This document shows positions 4,870 through 64,000 of a stretch of 64,000 bases of DNA, one piece after another (within the stretch, counting starts at the first letter, position 1; each line of letters opens with the position of its first letter). The notes below the pieces were generated by a model. It did no database searches and was not told the origin of the DNA. It saw only the letters and a list, made by a program, of their open reading frames with translations. The position numbers were made by a program, and so were the translations under genes. Source of the DNA: an uncultured Thermococci archaeon (GTDB taxonomy: Archaea; Methanobacteriota_B; Thermococci; Methanofastidiosales; B48-G16); the NCBI GenBank assembly GCA_964595645.1, contig CAZQQT010000011.1:2064-66063 (forward strand), read 5' to 3'.

Positions 4870-6441
4870 TTATTGTTTTTTCATCACCATGCGTACCGTA
4901 TAGATAACCACAGCTGCAATACCCACAACAAATAGTATAAGGGGGATATACTCAAATATCCCTACCATTTTCTGGTTGTCCTGAAGCTCCGTGATTTTCT
5001 GTGTACAGAGATCGGCTTTTTCCTGGTTGATATCCTTGTAGAACTCTCTGGCCTGTTCATAATCCTGTATGGCACCGTCGTAATTCTCTTCTTGTTCTTT
5101 TTGTTGAGCCTGTGAAAAATACATATCTCCATTGATTCCTTTATATGCCTTTGAAATAAACGTATCGCAGACCTGTACCATTTCTGTATCGCCTAGTTCT
5201 TCGTAAAGTGCTTTCGCCTGGGTAAACTTTTCTTTTGCATCTGTATACTTCTTCTGGTTGAAGAGTGCTCCTCCCTGCTTGTAAAGTGCCTGTGCCTGAT
5301 TCTTTTTTGCTTCGATATCTTCTTCCTCCTCTTCTTCCTCTTCTTCCTCCTCTTCTTCTTTCTCCTTTGGTTTCTCCTTTTCGTACGTGAACACATTTAA
5401 AAATCGCCAGCTCGAGGCGAGAATCTCCTTTTTTCCATCGCCATCAAGATCTTCAGTTTGGATCTTGAACACTTCATCATTGGAGTAGGTGGTGTTGTAC
5501 TGCGCGACCCGTTCTCCGTCCTCTACCACAACGAGGGTGTTCCCTAGCGCCAGCAGTACTTCAGGAATGTTGTTTCCATCGAGATCCTCGATATATGCTG
5601 TAGTAAAATGCTTGGCACTCGGATACTCATACTCCCACTCCTGTGTTCCTTCCTTATCATACGCAGCAATTGTATACTTGTGAAGGACAACTATCTCATC
5701 AACACCGTTGCCATTATGATCCGCCAAGAAAGCGTCGATCGCCTCATTATCAAGAGGATGTTTCCAGTACAGAAGCCCATTTTGTTTATAAAAACGAAGC
5801 TCATCACCGGCAAGGACGATTTCCTGGACACCATCACCGTTGAAATCATGGACAATGAAGGCGTTTGTATCTGTACAACAGTACCAGAGATCATTGAGAT
5901 CTTTATCAAGAACGTAAAACTTGTCGGCGGCCACAATAAACTCGAGATTTCCGTCGCCATCGAGATCCGTGCACGCTACTTTTTTTATTTCTGGTATCTC
6001 TCGAGAGTGCTTGGGATTTCCATTTCTGTAGAATGTATATATTCTCTCCTCAGTAGCAAAAATCAATTCCTTTCGTGCATCACTGTCAAGATCCCGTATC
6101 ATAGCGGCCTTTACCTCTCCTTCTAGCACGCACTGGGCTTTCATATTCCCTAAGTAGTCGATAAGGTAAGCAACATCTTTTCCCCCCACAGCAAAGGAAG
6201 GCGTAAGATAGACCTCTGAAAAATCAAAGGCATTTCCCGGGTACTCAAACTTTTTCAAAGAGTTTCCATCGAAGTCTACAATGTGCAGGAATTTACTCCC
6301 TATCGCTATCTCCTCCTTGCCATCGTCGTTATAATCTAAAACACAAAAGTCGTATACCTTCTCCTTCGTCTGAAAATTCCAATCTGCACTCGCCATTGGC
6401 ACTACTAGAAGTACCACTACCACAGCTAACCACTTCTTCAT
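4870..6441 (-). CDS. Secreted, membrane-anchored protein: FG-GAP-like repeats, a poly-Glu linker, a TPR-like region and a C-terminal TM helix
   Basis: Signal peptide (MKKWLAVVVVLLVVPMASA). Repeated DxDGDG, DFNGDG and DHNGNG calcium-binding propeller-type motifs. A run of 15 Glu. A C-terminal hydrophobic helix (IPLILFVVGIAAVVIY). Confidence 0.55.
   Translation of the reverse strand: MKKWLAVVVVLLVVPMASADWNFQTKEKVYDFCVLDYNDDGKEEIAIGSKFLHIVDFDGNSLKKFEYPGNAFDFSEVYLTPSFAVGGKDVAYLIDYLGNMKAQCVLEGEVKAAMIRDLDSDARKELIFATEERIYTFYRNGNPKHSREIPEIKKVACTDLDGDGNLEFIVAADKFYVLDKDLNDLWYCCTDTNAFIVHDFNGDGVQEIVLAGDELRFYKQNGLLYWKHPLDNEAIDAFLADHNGNGVDEIVVLHKYTIAAYDKEGTQEWEYEYPSAKHFTTAYIEDLDGNNIPEVLLALGNTLVVVEDGERVAQYNTTYSNDEVFKIQTEDLDGDGKKEILASSWRFLNVFTYEKEKPKEKEEEEEEEEEEEEEDIEAKKNQAQALYKQGGALFNQKKYTDAKEKFTQAKALYEELGDTEMVQVCDTFISKAYKGINGDMYFSQAQQKEQEENYDGAIQDYEQAREFYKDINQEKADLCTQKITELQDNQKMVGIFEYIPLILFVVGIAAVVIYTVRMVMKKQ
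5318..5372. repeat. Tri-/dodecanucleotide simple-sequence repeat (ctc/ttc units) encoding the poly-Glu tract
   Basis: The stretch tcttcctcctcttcttcctcttcttcctcctcttcttctttctcc is visible directly in the sequence. Confidence 0.7.
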
Positions 6442-15306: not shown

Positions 15307-18228
15307 CTACTCTAACGGTTCAATGAAGATCGGTGTATCTGCAACCGTCACTGCATCTACACTCACTTTCTGTGTATGCCCATAGATATCGGTGACGAGA
15401 ACCGTACCTTCTAGCGCTTTCGGGAGATCTTTTCCGCCCCATAGTACATACACTGGTTGTCCATTAACAGTGAATTTGTACTGTCCTTCGGTCACACGTA
15501 TGTTCCATGTGCCGTCTTCTTCATGACCTCGAAATATCTGTTCGTTCAACACCTCAACAGTCTCAAAGTGATCTAACATGTGAATGGTTGTTTTCACTGC
15601 GTAAAAAAGATCTGTCTTTTCATCATTCGAATTGATTAATGCGGAAGCATCGCCGAACGGTGGATTCGCGTCCGGAACGCCTGGTATTGGAGATTTAAAA
15701 TTCACAATGAACAGTTTATCGTATCCTTGTGCAAGAGCATACGTTATATACTTGGTCATGATCTTTGCGTATTCTTCGGAGGATAGACTCGGCGTTTCGT
15801 TGGTATTTTCAAATTGGGTTTCGGTAACCCACCACGGGATATCTGTAAGTTCTCTTTTTGACATCTCTTCCTTAAAAGTACATATTTTAAGAACAGACCC
15901 CCTCCCACTAACCTCGTGGATATTCGCGATATCAAAATACGCTGTTGCTCCCATATCAAATAACGTATCCCAGTACGGATTATCAACGGCTGAAACCATT
16001 CCCGATTGTACTATTTTGCCATCAAGATTAGCTTCTCTTATCGTTTCGTAACTCATTTTTAGGATACTAAAGTAATTTTCCTCCGATCCACTAAAAAAAT
16101 CTTTGACTTCTACTTCATTGCCAATCGCAAAATACTCGACGGGATATTTCAGGCATGTCATGTCATCGATACCGTCCATATCATACCGTTCGGCAAATTT
16201 TCTCAATCGTTCTTTCACCGGATTACAATTCTCTACCAGCTGATTCACAAAAACTTCCTGCACGAACCAGATGCCATTCAGCTGCGCTTTCATAATATAC
16301 ATGTCAAATTGTTTGAGTAGTTTCTCGAACTCATTGTCACTCATTGTTTCGAGAGCATTCATATCCAACATCATGGAAATTGTTCTTTCCCAGACGAGAC
16401 CAGCATCTACCAAGTCCTGGTGATATGCAGGATCGGAGTGGATGATGTCGAAATGGGATGCCTTGTTCCTCTCGATTGTGTGCTGCGATACTGACGTGCT
16501 GCAGTACTCATCGAGAAGTCGATCGTTCTCCTCCTGATTGACTGCATATCTCTCCTTAGTATCTTTTTCCATTATATCATATTCCTCTTTATTGGTGGTA
16601 GCCCGTATAATCACGAGTACCAAAATTAGTGATGCAAGAAAAATAACAAAAAATGGCTTTTTCCGTTTCCCTCTACCGATTTTAAGATACAAGAGGAAAA
16701 GAGCAATTACTATTCCAATTAAGGCGAAGTACGCTTTATTGCCAGATTTATCCGGTTCCCTGCTGGGTGACGGTGTTTTTTGCGTTTCTTTCTCATCCTT
16801 TTCTGGAGGTGCTGTTTCCTCTGGTTCTGGGGACTCCGTTACCACCTCTTTTGGTGGGGCTGTTTCCTCTGACTCTTCTTTCTCTTCGGGTAATCCCGTT
16901 ACTTCCACCCCATCGATGGTATTCGTCCCTACCTCAAACAGATCAATGAACCTCTCGTCTTCCACAAGAACGAGTACCGATTCGCCCTCATACTCCCAGT
17001 CCTCTGGGTGTGCTGTGGTATCATGATCCTCATAATCCTCATAATGAATGGGATCGCCACCGTTGTGAGTAATCGTATTGCTTTTGATAGTAACCGTTCC
17101 CACGCGCGAAGTGAACACATGAAATACAGACACTCTATTGTGGTGAATGGTGTTATCTCGTATTGTAGTATTGGTAGACTCACCATGTTCAAGGTAAAAA
17201 TGCTCGTCCCAGCAGATCGCTCCCTCACCGTTATGGTGAATTTCATTGTTGCACATCACGGTATTGGATGAGGATGCAAGGTAGATTCCAAACCTATCGT
17301 TGTAACTGATCTCATTATCGCGTATCTCAAAATTATGAACCCTCTCCTCGAACATAATGCCATTACTCCCACCAGTAGTATCTCTGCGATGTCTGTTCTC
17401 GCTGATAAGATTGTCGTGTATTTCGCCATTCCGCGCTTTGACAAGCCAGAGACCTTGTTCGCCGTTACGTAGTACTGTATTGTGCGCGATCTCGATGTCC
17501 TCCACGTACTCAAGCTCACCGTGTGTCACACCGATGCCATCGCTGTTCGAGTTGATCACCGTGTTGCCGATGATTCGTACATGGTTGCAGCCGTCGGTGC
17601 GTATTCCCTGCGATCGTCCGTCACCATAATCTTCTCCTTGCTTTAACGCCACTAACAATGCTTTATTGTCAAAGAAGATACTCAGACCGTTGTCTTGCAC
17701 ATGGTTGTCTCTGATCTCAACGTTGTCAGCATTAAATACACTGATAAAATAGGAACGGTGACTCTCCCTTACCGTATTATTGCGAATAGACACGTGGTCC
17801 ATTCTTCTATCATGGCTACAGACACGGAATCCATAATCATTATTACTGATTGTATTATCGTAAATTTCTACGTGTTTTGCGCCGAAAACAAGAATTGCTC
17901 CCGTCTCGAAGGGGTCTCTCATCATTGCTAGGTTCGCGTCGCCCTCGCCTCTCCGTATTCTTTCCTGGATCTTCTCAGAGATCGCCGTACCGCAGTCGTG
18001 GACGTAGTTGTTCCGGATCACGACGTACTCCACATTCCTTATCTGGATTCCTGGACCATCGGGGTTACTGATCTCGTACCCTTCGACGATATAGGGATTA
18101 TCGAGGGAGCTTGGTACATTTTCTATAATAATTGGATCATGGAGCCGATATGAGGAGTTAGAAACAGTCGAAGGGACAGCAGAGAAGACAATGATAAAAC
18201 TTATGAGCACGCAACGAAAGCATTTCAT
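15307..18228 (-). CDS. Surface protein: signal peptide, right-handed parallel beta-helix (PbH1/NosD-like) domain, acidic PE-rich linker, TM hairpin, and a C-terminal clan GH-A glycosidase-like TIM-barrel domain
   Basis: The track ORF runs to 18321. Start is placed at the internal ATG at 18228 because MKCFRCVLISFIIVFSAVPS is a signal peptide, and this removes the overlap with the upstream paralog. PbH1 repeats (IRNNYVHDCG, IRDNHVQDNG, IIGNTVINSN, IAHNTVLRNG, IHDNLISEN...). TM1 is YFALIGIVIALFLLYL, followed by a KIGRGKRKK loop and TM2 FFVIFLASLILVLVII. GH-A motifs FAIGNEVE (acid/base) and WWVTETQF (nucleophile). Confidence 0.6.
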   Translation of the reverse strand: MKCFRCVLISFIIVFSAVPSTVSNSSYRLHDPIIIENVPSSLDNPYIVEGYEISNPDGPGIQIRNVEYVVIRNNYVHDCGTAISEKIQERIRRGEGDANLAMMRDPFETGAILVFGAKHVEIYDNTISNNDYGFRVCSHDRRMDHVSIRNNTVRESHRSYFISVFNADNVEIRDNHVQDNGLSIFFDNKALLVALKQGEDYGDGRSQGIRTDGCNHVRIIGNTVINSNSDGIGVTHGELEYVEDIEIAHNTVLRNGEQGLWLVKARNGEIHDNLISENRHRRDTTGGSNGIMFEERVHNFEIRDNEISYNDRFGIYLASSSNTVMCNNEIHHNGEGAICWDEHFYLEHGESTNTTIRDNTIHHNRVSVFHVFTSRVGTVTIKSNTITHNGGDPIHYEDYEDHDTTAHPEDWEYEGESVLVLVEDERFIDLFEVGTNTIDGVEVTGLPEEKEESEETAPPKEVVTESPEPEETAPPEKDEKETQKTPSPSREPDKSGNKAYFALIGIVIALFLLYLKIGRGKRKKPFFVIFLASLILVLVIIRATTNKEEYDIMEKDTKERYAVNQEENDRLLDEYCSTSVSQHTIERNKASHFDIIHSDPAYHQDLVDAGLVWERTISMMLDMNALETMSDNEFEKLLKQFDMYIMKAQLNGIWFVQEVFVNQLVENCNPVKERLRKFAERYDMDGIDDMTCLKYPVEYFAIGNEVEVKDFFSGSEENYFSILKMSYETIREANLDGKIVQSGMVSAVDNPYWDTLFDMGATAYFDIANIHEVSGRGSVLKICTFKEEMSKRELTDIPWWVTETQFENTNETPSLSSEEYAKIMTKYITYALAQGYDKLFIVNFKSPIPGVPDANPPFGDASALINSNDEKTDLFYAVKTTIHMLDHFETVEVLNEQIFRGHEEDGTWNIRVTEGQYKFTVNGQPVYVLWGGKDLPKALEGTVLVTDIYGHTQKVSVDAVTVADTPIFIEPLE
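16780..16951. repeat. Repeat block R1, copy A (linker region)
   Basis: About 98% identical to 18414..18584. Checked by eye; two mismatches. Confidence 0.8.
17364..17622. repeat. Repeat block R2, copy A (beta-helix core)
   Basis: 259 bp, apparently 100% identical to 19027..19285. Checked line by line. Confidence 0.85.
17939..18144. repeat. Repeat block R3, copy A (N-terminal beta-helix region)
   Basis: About 93% identical to 19602..19807. Confidence 0.7.
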
Positions 18229-18268
18229 AGAAATCTTATCTTCAAGAAGATACATAAAAATCTTGCTA

Positions 18269-19903
18269 TTAGCTCCTTTTTCGCCGAATATAAAAGAGAA
18301 CACCAGCGAGTAGTGTGGCAACTATAACAAGCACGATGAAATACACCGTATTGTCTGATTCGTCTGTTTCTAACGGCGGTTCTGGTTCTTCAGATTCGTA
18401 TGTAGGCGTTTCTTGCGTTTCTTTCTCATCCTTTTCTGGAGGTGCTGTTTCCTCTGGTTCTGGGGACTCCGTTACCACCTCTTTTGGTGGGGCTGTTTCC
18501 TCTGACTCTTCTTTCTCTTCGGGTAATCCCGTTACTTCCACTCCATCGATGGTATTCGTCCCTACCTCAAACAGATCGATGAACTTTTCATTTGCTTCGA
18601 AGAGTATCACAGACTCTCCCTCATACTCCCAGTCTTCTGGGTGGGCGGTCATGTCAAAGTCGTCATAAGACTCATAGTGTATTGGATTGCCACCATTTTT
18701 TGTGATGATATTACCTTCTACAATTATTTTTCCTGCAAAATTTCCTGAAAAATTGCTTAGAAAGTCAAAAACAGCTTTTCTATTATGGTGTATATTGTTG
18801 TCCCGCACTATTATATCTCCAGAGATATCTTCCTCTGCATAGTACTTATCATCCCAGTAAAAGATTCCACCCCATCCAATGGCACCGTCACCATTGTGGT
18901 GAATCTCGTTATCGTATATCTCATTGTTCGATGAAGTTATAAAGTATAAGCCATACATATCGTTGTAGCTGATCTCATTGTTGTATACTTTGAAATCAAA
19001 TACCTCTCCTTCAAATTCGATCCCGCTACTCCCACCAGTAGTATCTCTGCGATGTCTGTTCTCGCTGATAAGATTGTCGTGTATTTCGCCATTCCGCGCT
19101 TTGACAAGCCAGAGACCTTGTTCGCCGTTACGTAGTACTGTATTGTGCGCGATCTCGATGTCCTCCACGTACTCAAGCTCACCGTGTGTCACACCGATGC
19201 CATCGCTGTTCGAGTTGATCACCGTGTTGCCGATGATTCGTACATGGTTGCAGCCGTCGGTGCGTATTCCCTGCGATCGTCCGTCGGGAAAGTCCTCTCC
19301 TCGTTCAAATGCAGCCTGGAGCCCCTCGTTATCGATATACATGCTCAATCCATTGTCTTCCACATGGTTGTCTCTGATCTCAACGTTGTCAGCATTAGAC
19401 ACACTTAAAAAAAATGATCGATGGCTCTTTTTCACCGTGTTATCATGGATAGAAACTTTTTCTGCACGGAATCGATGCCCCCATACCTGTATACCATAAT
19501 CATTATTGATAATCGTGTTGTTGTAAATTTTTACATATTTTGCATCGAAAACAAGAATTCCACCTGTCTTAAAGGGTTCATTCATCGTTGCCAGTCTTGC
19601 ATCGCCCTCGCCTCTCCGTATTCTTTCCTGGATCGCCTCGGAGATCGCCGTACCACAGTCGTGGACGTAGTTGTTCCGGATCACAACGTAATCTACATCT
19701 CGTATCTGGATTCCAGGACCATCGGGGTTACTGATCTCGTACCCTTCGACGATATAGGGATTATCGAGGGAGCTTGATACATTTTTTATAATAATTGGAT
19801 CATGGAGGGTGTACGGGTCCGATATGGTAGGATGCACAAACAATGTAGAGAAACAGCCGCAGAAAAACAATACTAATAGAGAGATACTCTTTATCGTTTT
19901 CAT
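18269..19903 (-). CDS. Paralogous beta-helix surface protein ending in a C-terminal TM anchor and RRKRS tail
   Basis: Signal peptide MKTIKSISLLVLFFCGC. Same PbH1 repeat series and identical PE linker. Terminates after YFIVLVIVATLLAGVLFYIRRKRS. Confidence 0.7.
   Translation of the reverse strand: MKTIKSISLLVLFFCGCFSTLFVHPTISDPYTLHDPIIIKNVSSSLDNPYIVEGYEISNPDGPGIQIRDVDYVVIRNNYVHDCGTAISEAIQERIRRGEGDARLATMNEPFKTGGILVFDAKYVKIYNNTIINNDYGIQVWGHRFRAEKVSIHDNTVKKSHRSFFLSVSNADNVEIRDNHVEDNGLSMYIDNEGLQAAFERGEDFPDGRSQGIRTDGCNHVRIIGNTVINSNSDGIGVTHGELEYVEDIEIAHNTVLRNGEQGLWLVKARNGEIHDNLISENRHRRDTTGGSSGIEFEGEVFDFKVYNNEISYNDMYGLYFITSSNNEIYDNEIHHNGDGAIGWGGIFYWDDKYYAEEDISGDIIVRDNNIHHNRKAVFDFLSNFSGNFAGKIIVEGNIITKNGGNPIHYESYDDFDMTAHPEDWEYEGESVILFEANEKFIDLFEVGTNTIDGVEVTGLPEEKEESEETAPPKEVVTESPEPEETAPPEKDEKETQETPTYESEEPEPPLETDESDNTVYFIVLVIVATLLAGVLFYIRRKRS
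18414..18584. repeat. Repeat block R1, copy B
   Basis: Partner of 16780..16951. Confidence 0.8.
19027..19285. repeat. Repeat block R2, copy B
   Basis: Partner of 17364..17622. Confidence 0.85.
19602..19807. repeat. Repeat block R3, copy B
   Basis: Partner of 17939..18144. Confidence 0.7.
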
Positions 19904-36561: not shown

Positions 36562-36658
36562 GCCGGGGTGGCTCAGCCTGGTGAGAGCGCTCAGCTCATA
36601 AGTCTACTCAGAGCGCTGAGAAACTGAGAGGTCGCGGGTTCAAAGCCCGCCCCCGGCA
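36562..36658 (+). tRNA. tRNA with CAT anticodon (elongator Met or Ile2) carrying a 22-nt intron at the canonical 37/38 position
   Basis: Manual fold. Acceptor GCCGGGG/CCCCGGC with G1:C72, so not an initiator. Anticodon stem CTCAG/CTGAG. Loop CTCATA is interrupted at 36601..36622 by agtctactcagagcgctgagaa, then A-CTGAG resumes. T-arm GCGGG-TTCAAAG-CCCGC. Confidence 0.75.
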
Positions 36659-59839: not shown

Positions 59840-60250
59840 CTACACTGACGCTTTCTCCAAGCTCACGGTGACTAACGCCACAGAGATCTTTAACTCTTCA
59901 GCTATCTGCTCCGGTGTGTACCCTCTACCGTGCAGCCGGATAACATCACTGAGATCGGGAAGTTCGTTATTGCTCTTCAGTCCAAGACTGGTTCGTCGGT
60001 AGTGGATGGCTGGTGGTGTGAGACCCATCTCACGCGCTATCTCCTTATCGGTGTACCCTTGATGATACAGCTCCAAAAATGTCTCTCTGTCGAATTTCTT
60101 TTCTTTTTTATGATAGTTATTTTCGAGTCCAAGCCGTTTTCTTCGATAATTCACAGAACTCTGAGAAACCTCCAATTCCTCAGCAATCTCCCGATCGGTC
60201 AACCCCCGTGAGTGGAGCTCAATGATCTCCTCATCCGTGATCTTGGGCAT
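59840..60250 (-). CDS. Protein built from three tandem sigma-70-r4/LuxR-like HTH repeats
   Basis: Repeats: LTDREIAEELEVSQSSVNYRRKRLGL; YTDKEIAREMGLTPPAIHYRRTSLGL; YTPEQIAEELKISVALVTVSL. Confidence 0.6.
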   Translation of the reverse strand: MPKITDEEIIELHSRGLTDREIAEELEVSQSSVNYRRKRLGLENNYHKKEKKFDRETFLELYHQGYTDKEIAREMGLTPPAIHYRRTSLGLKSNNELPDLSDVIRLHGRGYTPEQIAEELKISVALVTVSLEKASV

Positions 60251-60377
60251 ATCTTCCTTATGAAGAGGGTAATAAAAACTTTACTATTGGGTTGCTATGT
60301 TACCGTGGTCATCATCGCAATTTTGAAATACTTTCACTTCTTTCTTCTCCAATCGCTGATCGACTACATTACCAAGA

Positions 60378-60713
60378 TCAGAAGCAAGTCTTTTCTATAC
60401 CTAATAAACTATTAAATTGTTCCATTCTACGTGGCCATGCAGATAATAATATGGCACAATAAAAATTATATAGAACAAGAAGACTAAATACTGGAAAAAT
60501 ATAGAGAATATCTCCTTCTTCTCTTTTATATTTATATATTATTTGCTTTAAACCTAGCAACAAAACTATCCCCACAAGATAATTCCGTAAAGATTCTAGA
60601 GAAAGCCAGCTATAAAATACATAAATATACAATCCGAAAACTACAATTGCTATCATAGTATACGAAAGATATACTGTTTTCTTATTCCGTTCCCATAGTC
60701 TTACAAAGTTCAT
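60378..60713 (-). CDS. Small three-TM membrane protein
   Basis: Hydrophobicity only. Confidence 0.35.
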   Translation of the reverse strand: MNFVRLWERNKKTVYLSYTMIAIVVFGLYIYVFYSWLSLESLRNYLVGIVLLLGLKQIIYKYKREEGDILYIFPVFSLLVLYNFYCAILLSAWPRRMEQFNSLLGIEKTCF

Positions 60714-60741
60714 AATATTTTTCCTATATTTTCCTTTTTTT

Positions 60742-61266
60742 CTATACTACGCAAGGACATATGTCCTTTATGTGGTCAGTGACATCGTTTATTTGTCTTT
60801 TTAAGTCCCTGTTTTCAGTTTTGTACCATTCTATTGCTGGTGGGATATTTTCAATAGATTTTCTCTGTCCGTAGAGATGCATTTCGTTCCCTACAGCATA
60901 TGTGACTATGCCCACAACAACAATATCTACTTTTATTACTGCTTTTACCCCCTCTTTGATTGCTGTCCAAACAGTCCGCAGTGTCCATAGAGATTTAACA
61001 TCTGTTCTATACCAATCTCTATTATCAAGAGTATCTTTCATATCCTTCCTCAGTGATCGAAGTTCATCCTTCCAGTGCTCTATTAACTCGTTATTTTCAT
61101 TGATTTTATTCTTTCCAGCTTTTAAGGATCTCAGCAATTCCCGTACCTCAGGATCATCAGGTGCTGGTGTCTCTGTTGGCGTCGGCGTCTCCGGTGGACA
61201 CTCTCCATAGTCTTCAGAACGCGAGTCATCTGTTTTATTGTATCCTTTTTCACCACGCAGGAGAGA
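60742..61266 (-). CDS. PT-linker protein with no canonical start codon (paralog of 62668..63255). Possibly frameshifted or recoded.
   Basis: The in-frame upstream extension SLLRGEKGYNKTDDSRSEDYGECPPETPTPTETPAPDDPE runs to a stop at 61267 and contains no ATG/GTG/TTG. A 12-codon ATG mini-ORF (MALLLYVISPAW, ATG at 61288) sits in another frame. Confidence 0.35.
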   Translation of the reverse strand, partial: SLLRGEKGYNKTDDSRSEDYGECPPETPTPTETPAPDDPEVRELLRSLKAGKNKINENNELIEHWKDELRSLRKDMKDTLDNRDWYRTDVKSLWTLRTVWTAIKEGVKAVIKVDIVVVGIVTYAVGNEMHLYGQRKSIENIPPAIEWYKTENRDLKRQINDVTDHIKDICPCVV

Positions 61267-61420
61267 TCACATAGAGGAGCAGAGCCATGATAGAGTTGAC
61301 AAAGTTATTTCATAATTTATGACTTTATTGATTGAAAGAGTATTTTATTTCCTTCTAAAGGTTGAAGCCGTTTTGTAAAGATCGAGTCTCCCATTTCTTG
61401 CAAAATAACTAAAGATAACA

Positions 61421-61840
61421 TTAGCACCCACTATTGTTGCGATCCTCTTTGTATACATTGAGTCTACCCCCACTGTAGAAAAGAAAGGGAAGAAAGAAAG
61501 CACCACCATAACATCCAAACAAAAACATTGACCCGCCCCAATCTATTAATACCAGCCCTAAAAATAAAGGCATCGCAGATGCGAGAATATATCCTCTGAG
61601 ATCTTTGCTGACCTCTTTCCACTCTACATGATATTTTTCCTTTTTGTAGATACCAATTCTTCCTGTGCTATAAAGATATAAAAACGCCAGCAGTGCGCCC
61701 GAAAATCCACCTAATAAGAGATAACCAAAGAAGTACATAGACATCCATGTGAATATAATACCAAAAGATAATAAAAAAAATAAAATAAGGAAAAAGGTCT
61801 TTGTGTCGATATTTAGGGTTGATATATTTTTGGTTGTCAT
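61421..61840 (-). CDS. Membrane protein (about 4 TM)
   Basis: Start set to the ATG at 61840, 1 nt after the upstream stop. Confidence 0.4.
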   Translation of the reverse strand: MTTKNISTLNIDTKTFFLILFFLLSFGIIFTWMSMYFFGYLLLGGFSGALLAFLYLYSTGRIGIYKKEKYHVEWKEVSKDLRGYILASAMPLFLGLVLIDWGGSMFLFGCYGGAFFLPFLFYSGGRLNVYKEDRNNSGC

Positions 61841-61841
61841 G

Positions 61842-62084
61842 TTATCCACCACAGTACTTGCTACAATCTTGTGTCTGATCATCTTCACAATCTTCAACTG
61901 CATCTTTCCACTCTCCAATTTTTTCTCCCAATTCTTGAACCTCTTCCCAGTACTCATTCGCTTTTTCTCTAAGTTGCTTTGCTACCAGCGGATTGCATCC
62001 TTCACTGTACTCACACTCACCGGCCACACCGTAGTACTCTCTGTACATTTGGTAGACATTGCCATACTGTGTCTTAGTGCTCAT
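61842..62084 (-). CDS. Small acidic Cys-containing protein (paralog of 62495..62692)
   Basis: Shares YQxYR(D/E)(W/Y)Y..xGECEY(S/T)(E/G) and terminal Cys residues with its partner. Confidence 0.45.
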   Translation of the reverse strand: MSTKTQYGNVYQMYREYYGVAGECEYSEGCNPLVAKQLREKANEYWEEVQELGEKIGEWKDAVEDCEDDQTQDCSKYCGG

Positions 62085-62484
62085 TGTCGCGATCCTCGTT
62101 ATATTTCCTATTCTTAATCCACATTAGAACTGGTGTCCCTATAAAAGCCATTAGCAGTACGAGACATACGAGTATTACTCCGATCAATTTGATATATCTT
62201 ACGTAAACTTCACTGAGGTATCCCATCTTTGCACAGACTTCGCCTAAGCTGTAAAATAAGAGTCCACATCCTAAAAGGGTATGTTCATAAAACTCCATAT
62301 TGGATATTTCATCCTGTCCCAGAATAACTGCCAGAAACCATCCTCCCGAAAGAATAGGAAAAAGCATCTCTTCTGTGCTCCAATCAACATCGCCGATTTT
62401 CCAACTCCAGAATATGGCAAAACTCATTAAAAATATAGAAAAAAAGAATAAAAAAATTCTTCTTCGTGTTCTTTTAAATCTCAT
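62074..62484 (-). CDS. Membrane protein (about 4 TM)
   Basis: Starts 10 nt after the stop of 62495..62692. Confidence 0.4.
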   Translation of the reverse strand: MRFKRTRRRIFLFFFSIFLMSFAIFWSWKIGDVDWSTEEMLFPILSGGWFLAVILGQDEISNMEFYEHTLLGCGLLFYSLGEVCAKMGYLSEVYVRYIKLIGVILVCLVLLMAFIGTPVLMWIKNRKYNEDRDNEH

Positions 62485-62494
62485 CGTTAATCAC

Positions 62495-62692
62495 CTAGTT
62501 TAGTATACAGCTGCAATGCTCTTCTATCCACACTTGTAACTTATCGATCTCAAAGTTCAATCGAATAATCTGCTCCTCCGTCACCCTCTCTTCCCCGGTG
62601 TACTCGCACTCGCCGTCCTCGCAGTACCAGTCTCTGTAGGTCTGGTAGACCTTGCTGTTCTTATCAATCATTTGCTGCACCCTCGTTCCCAT
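62495..62692 (-). CDS. Small acidic Cys-containing protein (paralog)
   Basis: KVYQTYRDWYCEDGECEYTGEE...HCSC. Confidence 0.45.
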   Translation of the reverse strand: MGTRVQQMIDKNSKVYQTYRDWYCEDGECEYTGEERVTEEQIIRLNFEIDKLQVWIEEHCSCILN

Positions 62693-63255
62693 ACACTTGC
62701 CAGGCCTTGCAGGCGTTCTACATTATTCTCGAGGGCCTCTGCTCGTTCAATGCATTCATCCTCTGACTCACCTTGTTCATATGTTATATATCCAATTAAT
62801 GAAGTAAGACCTAATGCTCCTGCCGCAGTACCAGGACCAGGACAAATGCAAGTTCCTATGAATCCACCAACACCTGCACCTAATGCTATTAACTGACTTC
62901 TAGTCTCTGCAGTATCATACGTGTCAGCTAAACTCCTCAATCTCTTTGCCTCATCTCTCATAGCTGTAGCTCTTTTCCTGCATTCTTCTAACCTTTCACG
63001 ATCACACGGACATCCGTTGCCTATCTCTCCAGTGCTTCCGTTCAGATGTGGGCAGGTATCGCATTTATTTCCGACTCCATCGTTATCTTTGTCCCACTGA
63101 TTCGCGTTGGGGTTGTTGGGACAGTTGTCCTTGTGATCTGGCACACCATCACCATCTGAATCCTGTTCCGGCTCCGGACTCGGTGTCGTTGTTGGTGTCG
63201 GCGTCTGGGAGGGTGTCGAGTCGTCACTTTCTTCGTAGTCCTCGGGACAGGTCAG
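62668..63255 (-). CDS. Cys-rich protein with thrombospondin-type-3-like calcium-binding repeats and a PT linker; no canonical start codon
   Basis: DSDGDGVPDHKDNCP and DKDNDGVGNKCDTCP repeats. The upstream in-frame extension LLTCPEDYEESDDSTPSQTPTPTTTPSPEPE runs to a stop at 63256. The listed ORF begins at a GTG. The ATG mini-ORF MYNSMESEGNDDF (ATG at 63293) is in another frame. Confidence 0.4.
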   Translation of the reverse strand: MTCPEDYEESDDSTPSQTPTPTTTPSPEPEQDSDGDGVPDHKDNCPNNPNANQWDKDNDGVGNKCDTCPHLNGSTGEIGNGCPCDRERLEECRKRATAMRDEAKRLRSLADTYDTAETRSQLIALGAGVGGFIGTCICPGPGTAAGALGLTSLIGYITYEQGESEDECIERAEALENNVERLQGLASVWERGCSK

Positions 63256-63375
63256 AAGTCATCGTTGCCTTCGGATTCCATGGAGTTATACATAGAGGCT
63301 GTTGATTATCTCATCTCTCTTCTATTTCTTTTTTATGATCGTTTTTTCTATAAGTCTTTTGTTTTTTAATCTGCG

Positions 63376-63714
63376 TTAAATATATTTTTTATATGAAATT
63401 AAAATGATGAATATCGCCAACAAACTCAACATGAAGACTAAAACATAAATAATATCAATGTTCAAAATTTCTAGGATTAGAAAACTTATTGGGAGGAAAA
63501 GAACTAAAAAAAAAGATCTTTTTGGTGTTTTGATACGTTTGTATTTAACTGTCAGCACAAAATATAATTCCGCTATAGAAATTGGAACTGCAATTCCTTT
63601 CTGAAACAAAAGTGAATATAAAAAGATAAATATAAGGATTCCACTCAAAATTGTTATATGAATCCTCTTTTTGGATTCCATTATGACCCTCCTACTTTCA
63701 AGGCACATGAACAC
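63376..63714 (-). CDS. Small three-TM membrane protein
   Basis: Hydrophobicity only. Confidence 0.3.
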   Translation of the reverse strand: MFMCLESRRVIMESKKRIHITILSGILIFIFLYSLLFQKGIAVPISIAELYFVLTVKYKRIKTPKRSFFLVLFLPISFLILEILNIDIIYVLVFMLSLLAIFIILISYKKYI

Positions 63715-64000
63715 GTTTCTAGTAGTTCTTTTGTGTATTTTTCAGCAAGATCGCCATGATAATGAAGAAGCTTTATATGTTTATTTATTTGTATTTCTAT
63801 ACCGTTCGCTTTTATTTTGTTATATGCATATAATGTTGCATAAGCATCCAAAGTAAGAAATTTTGTCAATAAAGTGTCCTGTAGAATCTCTTTTGGATCC
63901 ACTTCTGCACCACCAAGTTTCTTTATTGCGGATAGTACAGGTCCAGCTAGTGTCGAGATCCACCACTCAACGTTATCGGGCGAAAAATTCTTATTAAAAT

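Follow-up and report, generated by a model that had tools for sequence, protein, structure and literature searches.

What are the short open reading frames (ORFs) that crowd the minus strand at the end of this stretch of DNA from an uncultured euryarchaeon? The window, by which we mean the whole 64,000 nucleotides analysed from contig CAZQQT010000011.1, closes with a cluster at 59840–64000 (all of its features lie on the minus strand), which a preliminary description had presented as ten independent small genes in a cell-surface related, modular, duplicated and partly degraded arrangement. Its minus-strand ORFs were all found at the same coordinates in the ORF list, and the general character given to the cluster is borne out. 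The ORFs do not, however, represent ten independent genes: together they make up the 3' part of a single polymorphic locus centred on a large secreted protein, and on balance we lean towards the view that window 60378–64000 represents the downstream half of a polymorphic toxin-immunity-like locus with membrane-inserting tips.

The cluster continues past the window end, as had been suspected. Exact-sequence look-up of a 158-aa ORF within it returned a 24-kb contig (L036, sample SRR7048220) that is identical to the window over a 1712-nt overlap and runs 9.1 kb past its end; the same kind of look-up gave a 1.3-kb Logan contig for an 80-aa ORF of the cluster and no contig for the membrane-protein gene g6. 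Immediately upstream, at L036 6654–9464, lies a gene of ~2.8 kb whose 3' end is window 63681–64000. The ORF at the window edge, previously taken for a separate gene, is thus the last 105 codons of a ~930-aa gene, and encodes its resident C-terminal tip (ending ...ETCSCALKVGGS before the stop codon). On inspection of the sequence, the N-terminus of the product resembles a Sec signal peptide (MKGSGRIQITALLVVVILLVAVLPVYSF..), and a 958-aa relative, P0050, covers L036 6654–8951 by tblastn.

P0050 is an intact homologue from MAG196, a genome that carries the label Methanobacteriota or Euryarchaeota archaeon. Used as a query against 5.8 billion proteins, it retrieved ten relatives of 914–971 aa, one of them partial (596 aa); the full-length relatives, about ten in all, come without exception from uncultured euryarchaeal genomes or metagenomes, with source records labelled Methanobacteriota, Euryarchaeota or Methanomicrobia archaeon. 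When 1.84 billion representatives were searched exhaustively with a profile, nothing was gained beyond fragments, orphan modules and TSP3 proteins unrelated to the family; a metagenome scan yielded eight loci. The family layout comprises a conserved N-terminal part of ~750 aa, a pre-tip region that is Cys-rich or carries TSP3 and Pro-Thr segments, and a hypervariable tip of 90–180 aa. In an alignment of ten proteins the mean column identity is 57%, with ~700 columns strongly conserved and a collapse in the last ~200, where the tips cannot be aligned across the family. The contrast is seen within pairs of close relatives: P0054 and P0059 have bodies that are 99.4% and 100% identical but tips that are 20% identical, P0057 and P0058 display 98% identity compared to 29% in the tip, P0052 and P0054 keep 98.6% identity as far as about column 560 but drop to 33% beyond it, and P0056 and P0058 share a pre-tip region that is 97% identical with tips at 30%. 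These region-by-region identities reveal mosaic genes, and we conclude that tips have been swapped by recombination between otherwise near-identical genes.

Five pieces of the window map onto these full-length proteins (E 2e-56 to 8e-6), namely the resident tip, which is 30% identical to that of P0059 (E 4e-25), two frames with Pro-Thr linkers and two small Cys-motif ORFs. The two linker frames had been regarded as paralogous proteins. They show no detectable paralogy (BLASTP E 13), representing two tip types of one parent family, both 5'-truncated. Three-frame translation places the Pro-Thr linker of each upstream of the first ATG, GTG or TTG: following in-frame stops at 63259–63261 and 61267–61269 the frames read through ..CPEDYEESDDSTPSQTPTPTTTPSPEPEQDSDGDGVPDH.. 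and ..EDYGECPPETPTPTETPAPDDPEVRELL.., respectively, and the first start codons are GTG 63144 and TTG 61137. As no start codon lies upstream of the linkers, we interpret both ORFs as 5'-truncated gene fragments and not as complete proteins. Recoding or readthrough of stop codons as a source of the missing starts was rejected, because stops are abundant in the upstream frames and TGA, TAA and TAG all terminate neighbouring genes.

The first of these fragments, orphan tip module 1 (62668–63258; three-frame translation and P0050 alignment), aligns to residues 758–955 of P0050 (48%, E 2e-56). It runs from a Pro-Thr linker through TSP3-type repeats, GNGCPCD, a charged helix, a Gly-zipper hydrophobic hairpin and another charged helix to a terminal VWERGCSK, the same layout as the C-terminus of P0050 (Pro-Thr linker, PEQDSDGDGVPDNRDNCPNN..GNGCPCD, a divergent stretch of ~100 aa, then ..VWERGCRND). 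A TSP3 repeat had been claimed for the 158-aa ORF contained in this module (62668–63144); its score for Pfam TSP_3 (PF02412) is 24.7 bits, 0.3 under the cut-off of 25, while in a PDB search the family profile matches the TSP3 repeats of the OmpA-family protein 5wtl (E 2.6e-15) and of thrombospondin-1, and many TSP3 proteins were also retrieved with the ORF, so that on sequence grounds the repeat is treated here as present. Orphan tip module 2 (60742–61266; three-frame translation and tip alignments) reads ..EDYGECPP, Pro-Thr linker, DPEVRELL helix, hydrophobic segment, helix and a terminal DICPCVV, and aligns to P0056 783–949 (E 2e-8) as well as to the CxC-ended tips of P0057, P0058 and P0059.

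The two small Cys-motif ORFs do share the YQxYRxxY..GECEY motif described for them (11 of 20 residues identical, E 6e-6), and in the form YQxYRDxYCxxGECxY this motif sits in the pre-tip region of P0052 (754–778). One of them, g7 (62495–62692), encodes 58 aa from ATG 62671 or 65 aa from ATG 62692; in the 65-aa version residues 11–35 match P0052 754–778 (E 1e-9) and residues 33–64 match the last 32 residues of the P0057 tip (938–969; ..LQKEWLEDNCSCILG; E 3e-6), so that a pre-tip motif runs straight into the final ~30 residues of a tip of the P0057 type (..WIEEHCSCILN, then stop). The other (61842–62084, 80 aa, ending ..DCSKYCGG) has the pre-tip motif followed by a short helical piece lacking the hydrophobic hairpin; its residues 8–28 match P0052 756–776 (E 8e-6), and over its C-terminal 30 residues it shares 70% identity with a remnant of 54 aa in L003. 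Since in both a piece of the pre-tip region is joined to a tip end with the middle deleted, these ORFs are collapsed orphans.

Start-less orphan cassettes also lie downstream in other loci (L048, L040, L044, L035), and in L048 the main gene is accompanied by two orphans and one remnant, with a membrane-protein gene after each. On L035 (9921–10824), another contig of SRR7048220, an isolated orphan tip of 135 aa, P0004, stands with a 4-transmembrane (4-TM) partner among housekeeping genes. P0004 is 60% identical to the TSP3 fragment of the window, with its own TSP3 part frameshifted into a different frame, and the lineage therefore holds scattered orphan pairs away from any main gene.

Although unalignable in sequence across the family, the tips share a common anatomy. 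In all 22 tips that we examined (90–178 aa), two charged helices flank a hydrophobic or Gly-rich centre, and the sequence closes with a Cys motif; each starts with CxC, except window orphan 2, and ends in CxC.. or (R/K)GC... The centres of one class, type B, are rich in glycine (e.g. GAGVGGFIG, a GxxxGxxxG run), and several contain between one and six matches to GxxxGxxxG while some contain none. An AlphaFold2 model of orphan module 1 predicts two antiparallel helices of 52 residues that turn at CPG 101–103 within the hydrophobic stretch (pLDDT 74–85 in the charged parts and 56–68 at the hydrophobic tip), and the model of full-length P0050 has the same tip hairpin on a body with beta-sandwich domains and a helical domain. 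In Foldseek, the full-length model gave TM-scores of 0.1 or less, which are meaningless, and no significant neighbour; weak matches to complement C3 and MG-like domains merely echo a weak Pfam match to MG2.

A small multi-pass membrane-protein gene comes after the tip or remnant in every assessable case (>15) except window orphan 1, for which the partner-family gene g4 is found three ORFs downstream rather than adjacent. Stop and start codons frequently overlap at these junctions: at 63681 the ATG of g9 overlaps the TAA of the main gene as TAATG (the open frame of g9 reaches back to GTG 63714), and an ATGA overlap occupies 62668–62671. The pairing also follows the tip type, with five tip types each recurring beside their own downstream membrane-protein family in independent loci. 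Behind type-B tips (GNGCPCD ... WERGC; P0050, P0052, P0004) stand genes of a 4-TM family whose N-terminal signature is LNRETKIFFVILFF (LNRETK) and to which g4 (61421–61840, 139 aa) belongs (E 1e-14 to 1e-22 against the genes after P0050, P0052 and P0004); in this family a 2-TM unit ending GR(L/I)x(I/V)xK has been duplicated internally, and the two halves of the protein are similar to one another (E 3e-6). L039_124, which comes immediately after P0057, is 41.5% identical to g6 (62074–62484, 136 aa; E 2e-25), which itself directly follows the P0057-type remnant. The P0059 tip precedes a 76-aa membrane protein (L037_76), a near-identical copy of which (L048 TM74) stands after a P0059-type remnant in L048. 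One membrane protein accompanies the P0053-type tips, both at the L040 main gene (L040_164) and at an L044 orphan (its counterpart); another accompanies the P0119-type tips, at the L045 main gene and at an L048 orphan.

Three of the four membrane proteins in the window have homologues beside matching tips in other loci. The immunity-like partner of the resident tip, g9 (63376–63681, 101 aa by sequence and gene call), has two long hydrophobic blocks, each able to hold more than one TM helix (Kyte-Doolittle scan), and a weak similarity to L037_76 (E 9.5e-5) that was not recovered by tblastn against all loci. The fourth, g2 (60378–60713, 111 aa), lies directly after orphan module 2 and has two hydrophobic segments on the Kyte-Doolittle scale, but no homologue in the other fetched loci and no family match in Pfam or NCBIfam. 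The proposal that a two-gene cassette occurs twice can be retained in part: the small Cys ORFs precede their membrane-protein ORFs by a tight 10 nt and 1 nt and share their motif, but the two '4-TM' ORFs show no detectable paralogy (E 0.017) and belong to different partner families.

In the window the junction motif GTATGGGAACGAGGGTGC (62677–62694) encodes the conserved tip end ..VWERGC, holds a Shine-Dalgarno-like GAGGGTG, and is followed by the ATGA overlap with the next gene; it is present at every type-B tip/next-gene junction in MAG196, with three copies in L003/L008 and two in L012. A role as a DNA or RNA element was rejected for this repeated sequence, which is better explained as the ..VWERGC tip end combined with a Shine-Dalgarno-like site and an overlapping start. 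Outside MAG196, a genome-wide scan with the motif gave matches at chance level. Matches to IS-like transposase copies in Nitrosopumilus (L006, L007 and L018, metagenome-assembled genome OZ250186.1; L016, OZ244651.1) belong to one unrelated transposase (..LDAYGNEGAGVGRVAKAL..), a chance match multiplied by copy number. In L012 (MAG196 contig 49, 2324–4940) one main gene is followed by a tandem array of five 4-TM partner genes, and ahead of each lie a short tip-end relic (..VWERGC) and the same 18-nt junction sequence, in what looks like an immunity-gene array made by unequal crossing-over.

As the preliminary description had anticipated, no characterised operon was matched: every ORF and the family profile were searched against Pfam, PHROGs, NCBIfam, PADLOC and PDB, and only TSP3 and generic helix-turn-helix (HTH) matches were returned. 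For P0050 and the main-gene fragments of the window genome Pfam gives only TSP_3 and the weak MG2 match, and NCBIfam gives for P0050 only TSP3-type matches and one weak match to CobB. The concept of polymorphic toxin systems, of the Rhs and CdiA-CT/CdiI type, reportedly goes back to Zhang, Aravind and colleagues in 2012. Like those systems, the present locus has a large secreted protein with a conserved body (N-terminal and central region) and a hypervariable C-terminal module; a cognate, co-varying small gene immediately downstream, of putative protective function, often with overlapping stop and start codons; downstream orphan tip and partner cassettes without the 5' part of the gene, which keep a piece of the conserved pre-tip region; and mosaic genes arising from tip replacement. 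This combination of conserved secreted body, recombining tip, co-varying gene and start-less orphans, which the sequence comparisons support well, is the defining architecture of polymorphic toxin-immunity loci. Unlike Rhs and CdiA-CT systems, the locus has no VENN or PxxxxDPxGL demarcation motif and no recognised toxin fold, its tip opens with CxC and closes with a Cys motif, every partner is a multi-pass membrane protein, and the system occurs in an archaeon, apparently with Sec as its sole export route. Trafficking and pre-toxin modules of polymorphic toxins (RHS/YD, TPS, LXG, PAAR, PT-HINT, PT-TG) were not detected with Pfam and NCBIfam, nor were the TPS-domain CdiA, FHA repeats, VENN motif or CdiB of contact-dependent inhibition, and the archaeal host has no outer membrane.

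The closest archaeal description is that of VARTIG (arCOG07710) in Thermococcales, which has the same overall layout (PMC8416519). There, an upstream large secreted protein has a C-terminal region made hypervariable by recombination and is followed by variable small genes, mostly encoding transmembrane proteins, in an organisation like that of polymorphic toxin systems but of unknown function (Makarova et al. 2021, PMC8416519); counterparts outside Thermococcales were sought by strategies based on Ig and CARDB domains and none were found (PMC8416519). In VARTIG the variable C-terminal part consists of an Ig domain with a DNNxxxGG end, whereas the tip described here is predicted to be all-helical, a hydrophobic-centred hairpin with Cys motifs at its ends, and the two have no sequence relationship. 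A second parallel is functional only. EsxX of S. aureus has a membrane-depolarising glycine-zipper toxin at its C-terminus, which the polytopic proteins ExiCD, also occurring as orphan immunity genes, neutralise from outside the cell (PMC12744356); TelE of S. gallolyticus is a second C-terminal glycine-zipper toxin, for which the immunity protein is TipE, a small member of the DUF5085 family (PMC10434224). The type-B tips with GxxxGxxxG runs resemble these in placing a glycine-zipper hydrophobic segment at the C-terminus of a modular secreted protein. EsxX and TelE are Firmicutes proteins with an N-terminal LXG domain exported by type VII secretion, whereas Pfam detects no LXG domain here, there is no sequence similarity, the immunity families differ, and the archaeal tips are only presumptively toxic. 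Pore-forming colicins have immunity proteins with three or four TM segments, and alpha-pore-forming toxins of the ClyA family carry a hydrophobic hairpin at the end of long helices. The present tips are similar in having a hydrophobic helical hairpin on amphipathic or charged helices, and their partners, like colicin immunity proteins, are small multi-pass membrane proteins that would act within the membrane; however, there is no homology, the tip is far smaller than a colicin pore domain, and receptor-binding and translocation domains of the colicin type are missing.

The hydrophobic or glycine-zipper hairpin on long helices, compatible in its predicted form with membrane toxins, together with partners that are exclusively multi-pass membrane proteins, suggests a membrane-acting effector that is neutralised within the membrane. 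The tip would form a long hairpin of helices, and its hydrophobic end, often a glycine zipper, would insert into a cytoplasmic membrane and damage it in cells without the matching partner, while the partner would bind the hairpin within the membrane and so protect kin. Older tips persist downstream as start-less orphan fragments or collapsed remnants, each still with an intact partner gene, and retained orphan partners may protect against relatives that still carry these tips; the orphans look like displaced relics with their partner genes retained, as immunity against such relatives would predict. Taken further, the locus could serve archaeal kin discrimination or contact-dependent antagonism, in which a Cys-clamped hypervariable hairpin is read lock-and-key in the membrane by a duplicated 2-TM (4-TM) partner, and arrays of displaced tips and partners record past allele replacements; we hold this fuller proposal with belief and doubt in equal measure.

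Several observations weigh against a toxin-immunity function. The family is tiny and known solely from metagenomes; across Pfam, NCBIfam, PHROGs, PADLOC and PDB no tip matches a known toxin domain and no partner a known immunity family; and no delivery route, release step or pre-toxin processing domain could be identified. Several tips of the CxC...CxC type are weakly hydrophobic (maximum KD15 1.07–1.5), both structure models are of low confidence (pLDDT 55.5 for the full-length protein and 62.6 for the tip), and Foldseek returned only generic helical hairpins for the tip model, none below E 0.1, the best match being a non-significant one to MakA (E 0.18, TM-score 0.39). The assignment of g2 to orphan module 2 is presumed from position only. 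The longest DNA match shared by the window orphans and the resident main gene is 12 nt, which is at chance level; the idea of silent cassettes able to recombine with the resident gene was rejected on this ground, and in the absence of such DNA homology we regard the orphans as relics and not as ready-to-use cassettes. Finally, the main gene of the window genome spans frames 3, 1 and 3 as a result of two compensating frameshifts ~850 nt apart (L036 7860–7870 and 8710–8720, equivalent to window ~65280 and ~64430), giving split gene calls of 436, 351 and 147 aa in both the NCBI and Logan assemblies, which may share the same source reads. The frameshifts may reflect either a real pseudogene or a shared assembly error, and the gene may thus be inactive here, in which case the locus may now act mainly as an immunity island.

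The same architecture would also be expected if the hairpin anchored the large protein and its matching with the partner, within or between cells, signalled identity, as non-lethal self/non-self recognition or kin adhesion resembling IdsD/IdsE of Proteus or the hypothesis for VARTIG modelled on the major histocompatibility complex. Both partners vary chiefly in and near the segments embedded in the membrane, no toxin domain was found with Pfam or NCBIfam, MtsC and TraB, which act in cell cohesion and exchange, also have TSP3 repeats (weak matches), and the authors of the VARTIG study weighed the same alternative for a similar archaeal layout (PMC8416519). We nevertheless consider recognition of this kind unlikely, since retained orphan partners beside decayed tips, such as the five tandem 4-TM genes of L012 and the immunity-only remnants of the window, are expected of protection against toxins and not of an identity label, and no signalling component is linked to the locus. 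An ordinary surface protein is less probable again. Its membrane-proximal anchor would diversify under pressure from viruses or predators, with the partners as anchor-specific insertion or stabilising proteins and without antagonism; the signal-peptide-like N-terminus, beta-sandwich domains and spacer repeats are typical of archaeal surface proteins, and a C-terminal hydrophobic hairpin could serve as an anchor. However, pressure from viruses should diversify the exposed distal domains, yet these are the most conserved (up to 99–100%) while the tips differ completely, and orphan fragments and immunity-like arrays are unexpected for a plain anchor.

Very improbable, in our judgement, is the view of the cluster as a degraded integrated virus or plasmid, or as an island of ten independent small accessory genes. 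The composition does stand out, as no other 4.2-kb stretch of the window has so low a GC (0.388 compared to a median of 0.433), and GC is mosaic between genes, with g2 and g9 at 0.27–0.29; the region also contains many small ORFs of no known function and an HTH protein with weak phage-family matches. Nevertheless, no relatives were found in 2.9 million viral contigs, 50,697 phage records and 72,556 plasmids. Moreover, genes for integrase, capsid or replication are absent, no boundary marked by an integrase or a tRNA was seen (the tRNAs of the window all lie ~23–32 kb away), five of the ten ORFs can be traced as fragments to one large chromosomal gene family, and related loci lie among housekeeping genes at different sites and in differing chromosomal contexts. 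Within g7 (62495–62692) GC at third codon positions (GC3) is 0.71, compared to ~0.50 in core genes and 0.21–0.37 in the adjacent membrane-protein genes, which suggests that modules of different origin were joined here.

Two neighbouring genes are not counted as parts of the system because they have no counterparts at other loci. The gene adjoining the locus at 59840–60250 (136 aa) does encode a protein of three HTH repeats, as had been noted (Pfam HTH_23 over three stretches, E 1.5e-14), but no homologue was found beside any related locus; its GC is 0.479 compared to 0.27–0.41 in its neighbours. NCBIfam weakly matches it to Cbp1, a Sulfolobus protein that has three HTH units and binds CRISPR repeats (35 bits, where the cut-off is 140), and no CRISPR-like repeat array was detected in the window with Tandem Repeats Finder or Rfam. 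The LTD gene, behind which the cluster was thought to lie, in fact follows the cluster in transcriptional order; none of the related loci has it, and its linkage is coincidental. The remaining window is ordinary archaeal chromosome (DNA ligase, gyrase A, ELP3, NrdD/NrdR). It includes a 97-nt tRNA at 36562–36658 that was identified by Rfam and not reported by ARAGORN, probably an intron-containing archaeal tRNA. Other large predicted surface proteins at 15307–19903 and 4870–6441, unlinked to the locus, comprise two beta-helix/NosD-like proteins (1004 and 544 aa) and an FG-GAP repeat protein.

Antagonism between archaeal cells, like self-recognition, has been poorly documented. To our knowledge, the archaeal polymorphic toxins known so far came to light through recognisable toxin or trafficking domains of bacterial type, and VARTIG is confined to Thermococcales. 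The present locus shows all the architectural hallmarks of a polymorphic conflict system, yet surveys based on domains would miss it because its body, tips and partners are all without known domains. The locus supplies concrete cognate pairs, with at least five tip types each having its own membrane partner, and shows in detail that what archaeal annotations contain as start-less fragments and tiny 'Cys-motif proteins' can be left over from tip replacement instead of being genes. If the fuller proposal of kin discrimination or antagonism read within the membrane is true, these loci would constitute a hitherto undescribed family of polymorphic effectors and immunity proteins acting at the membrane in uncultured archaea related to Methanomicrobia.

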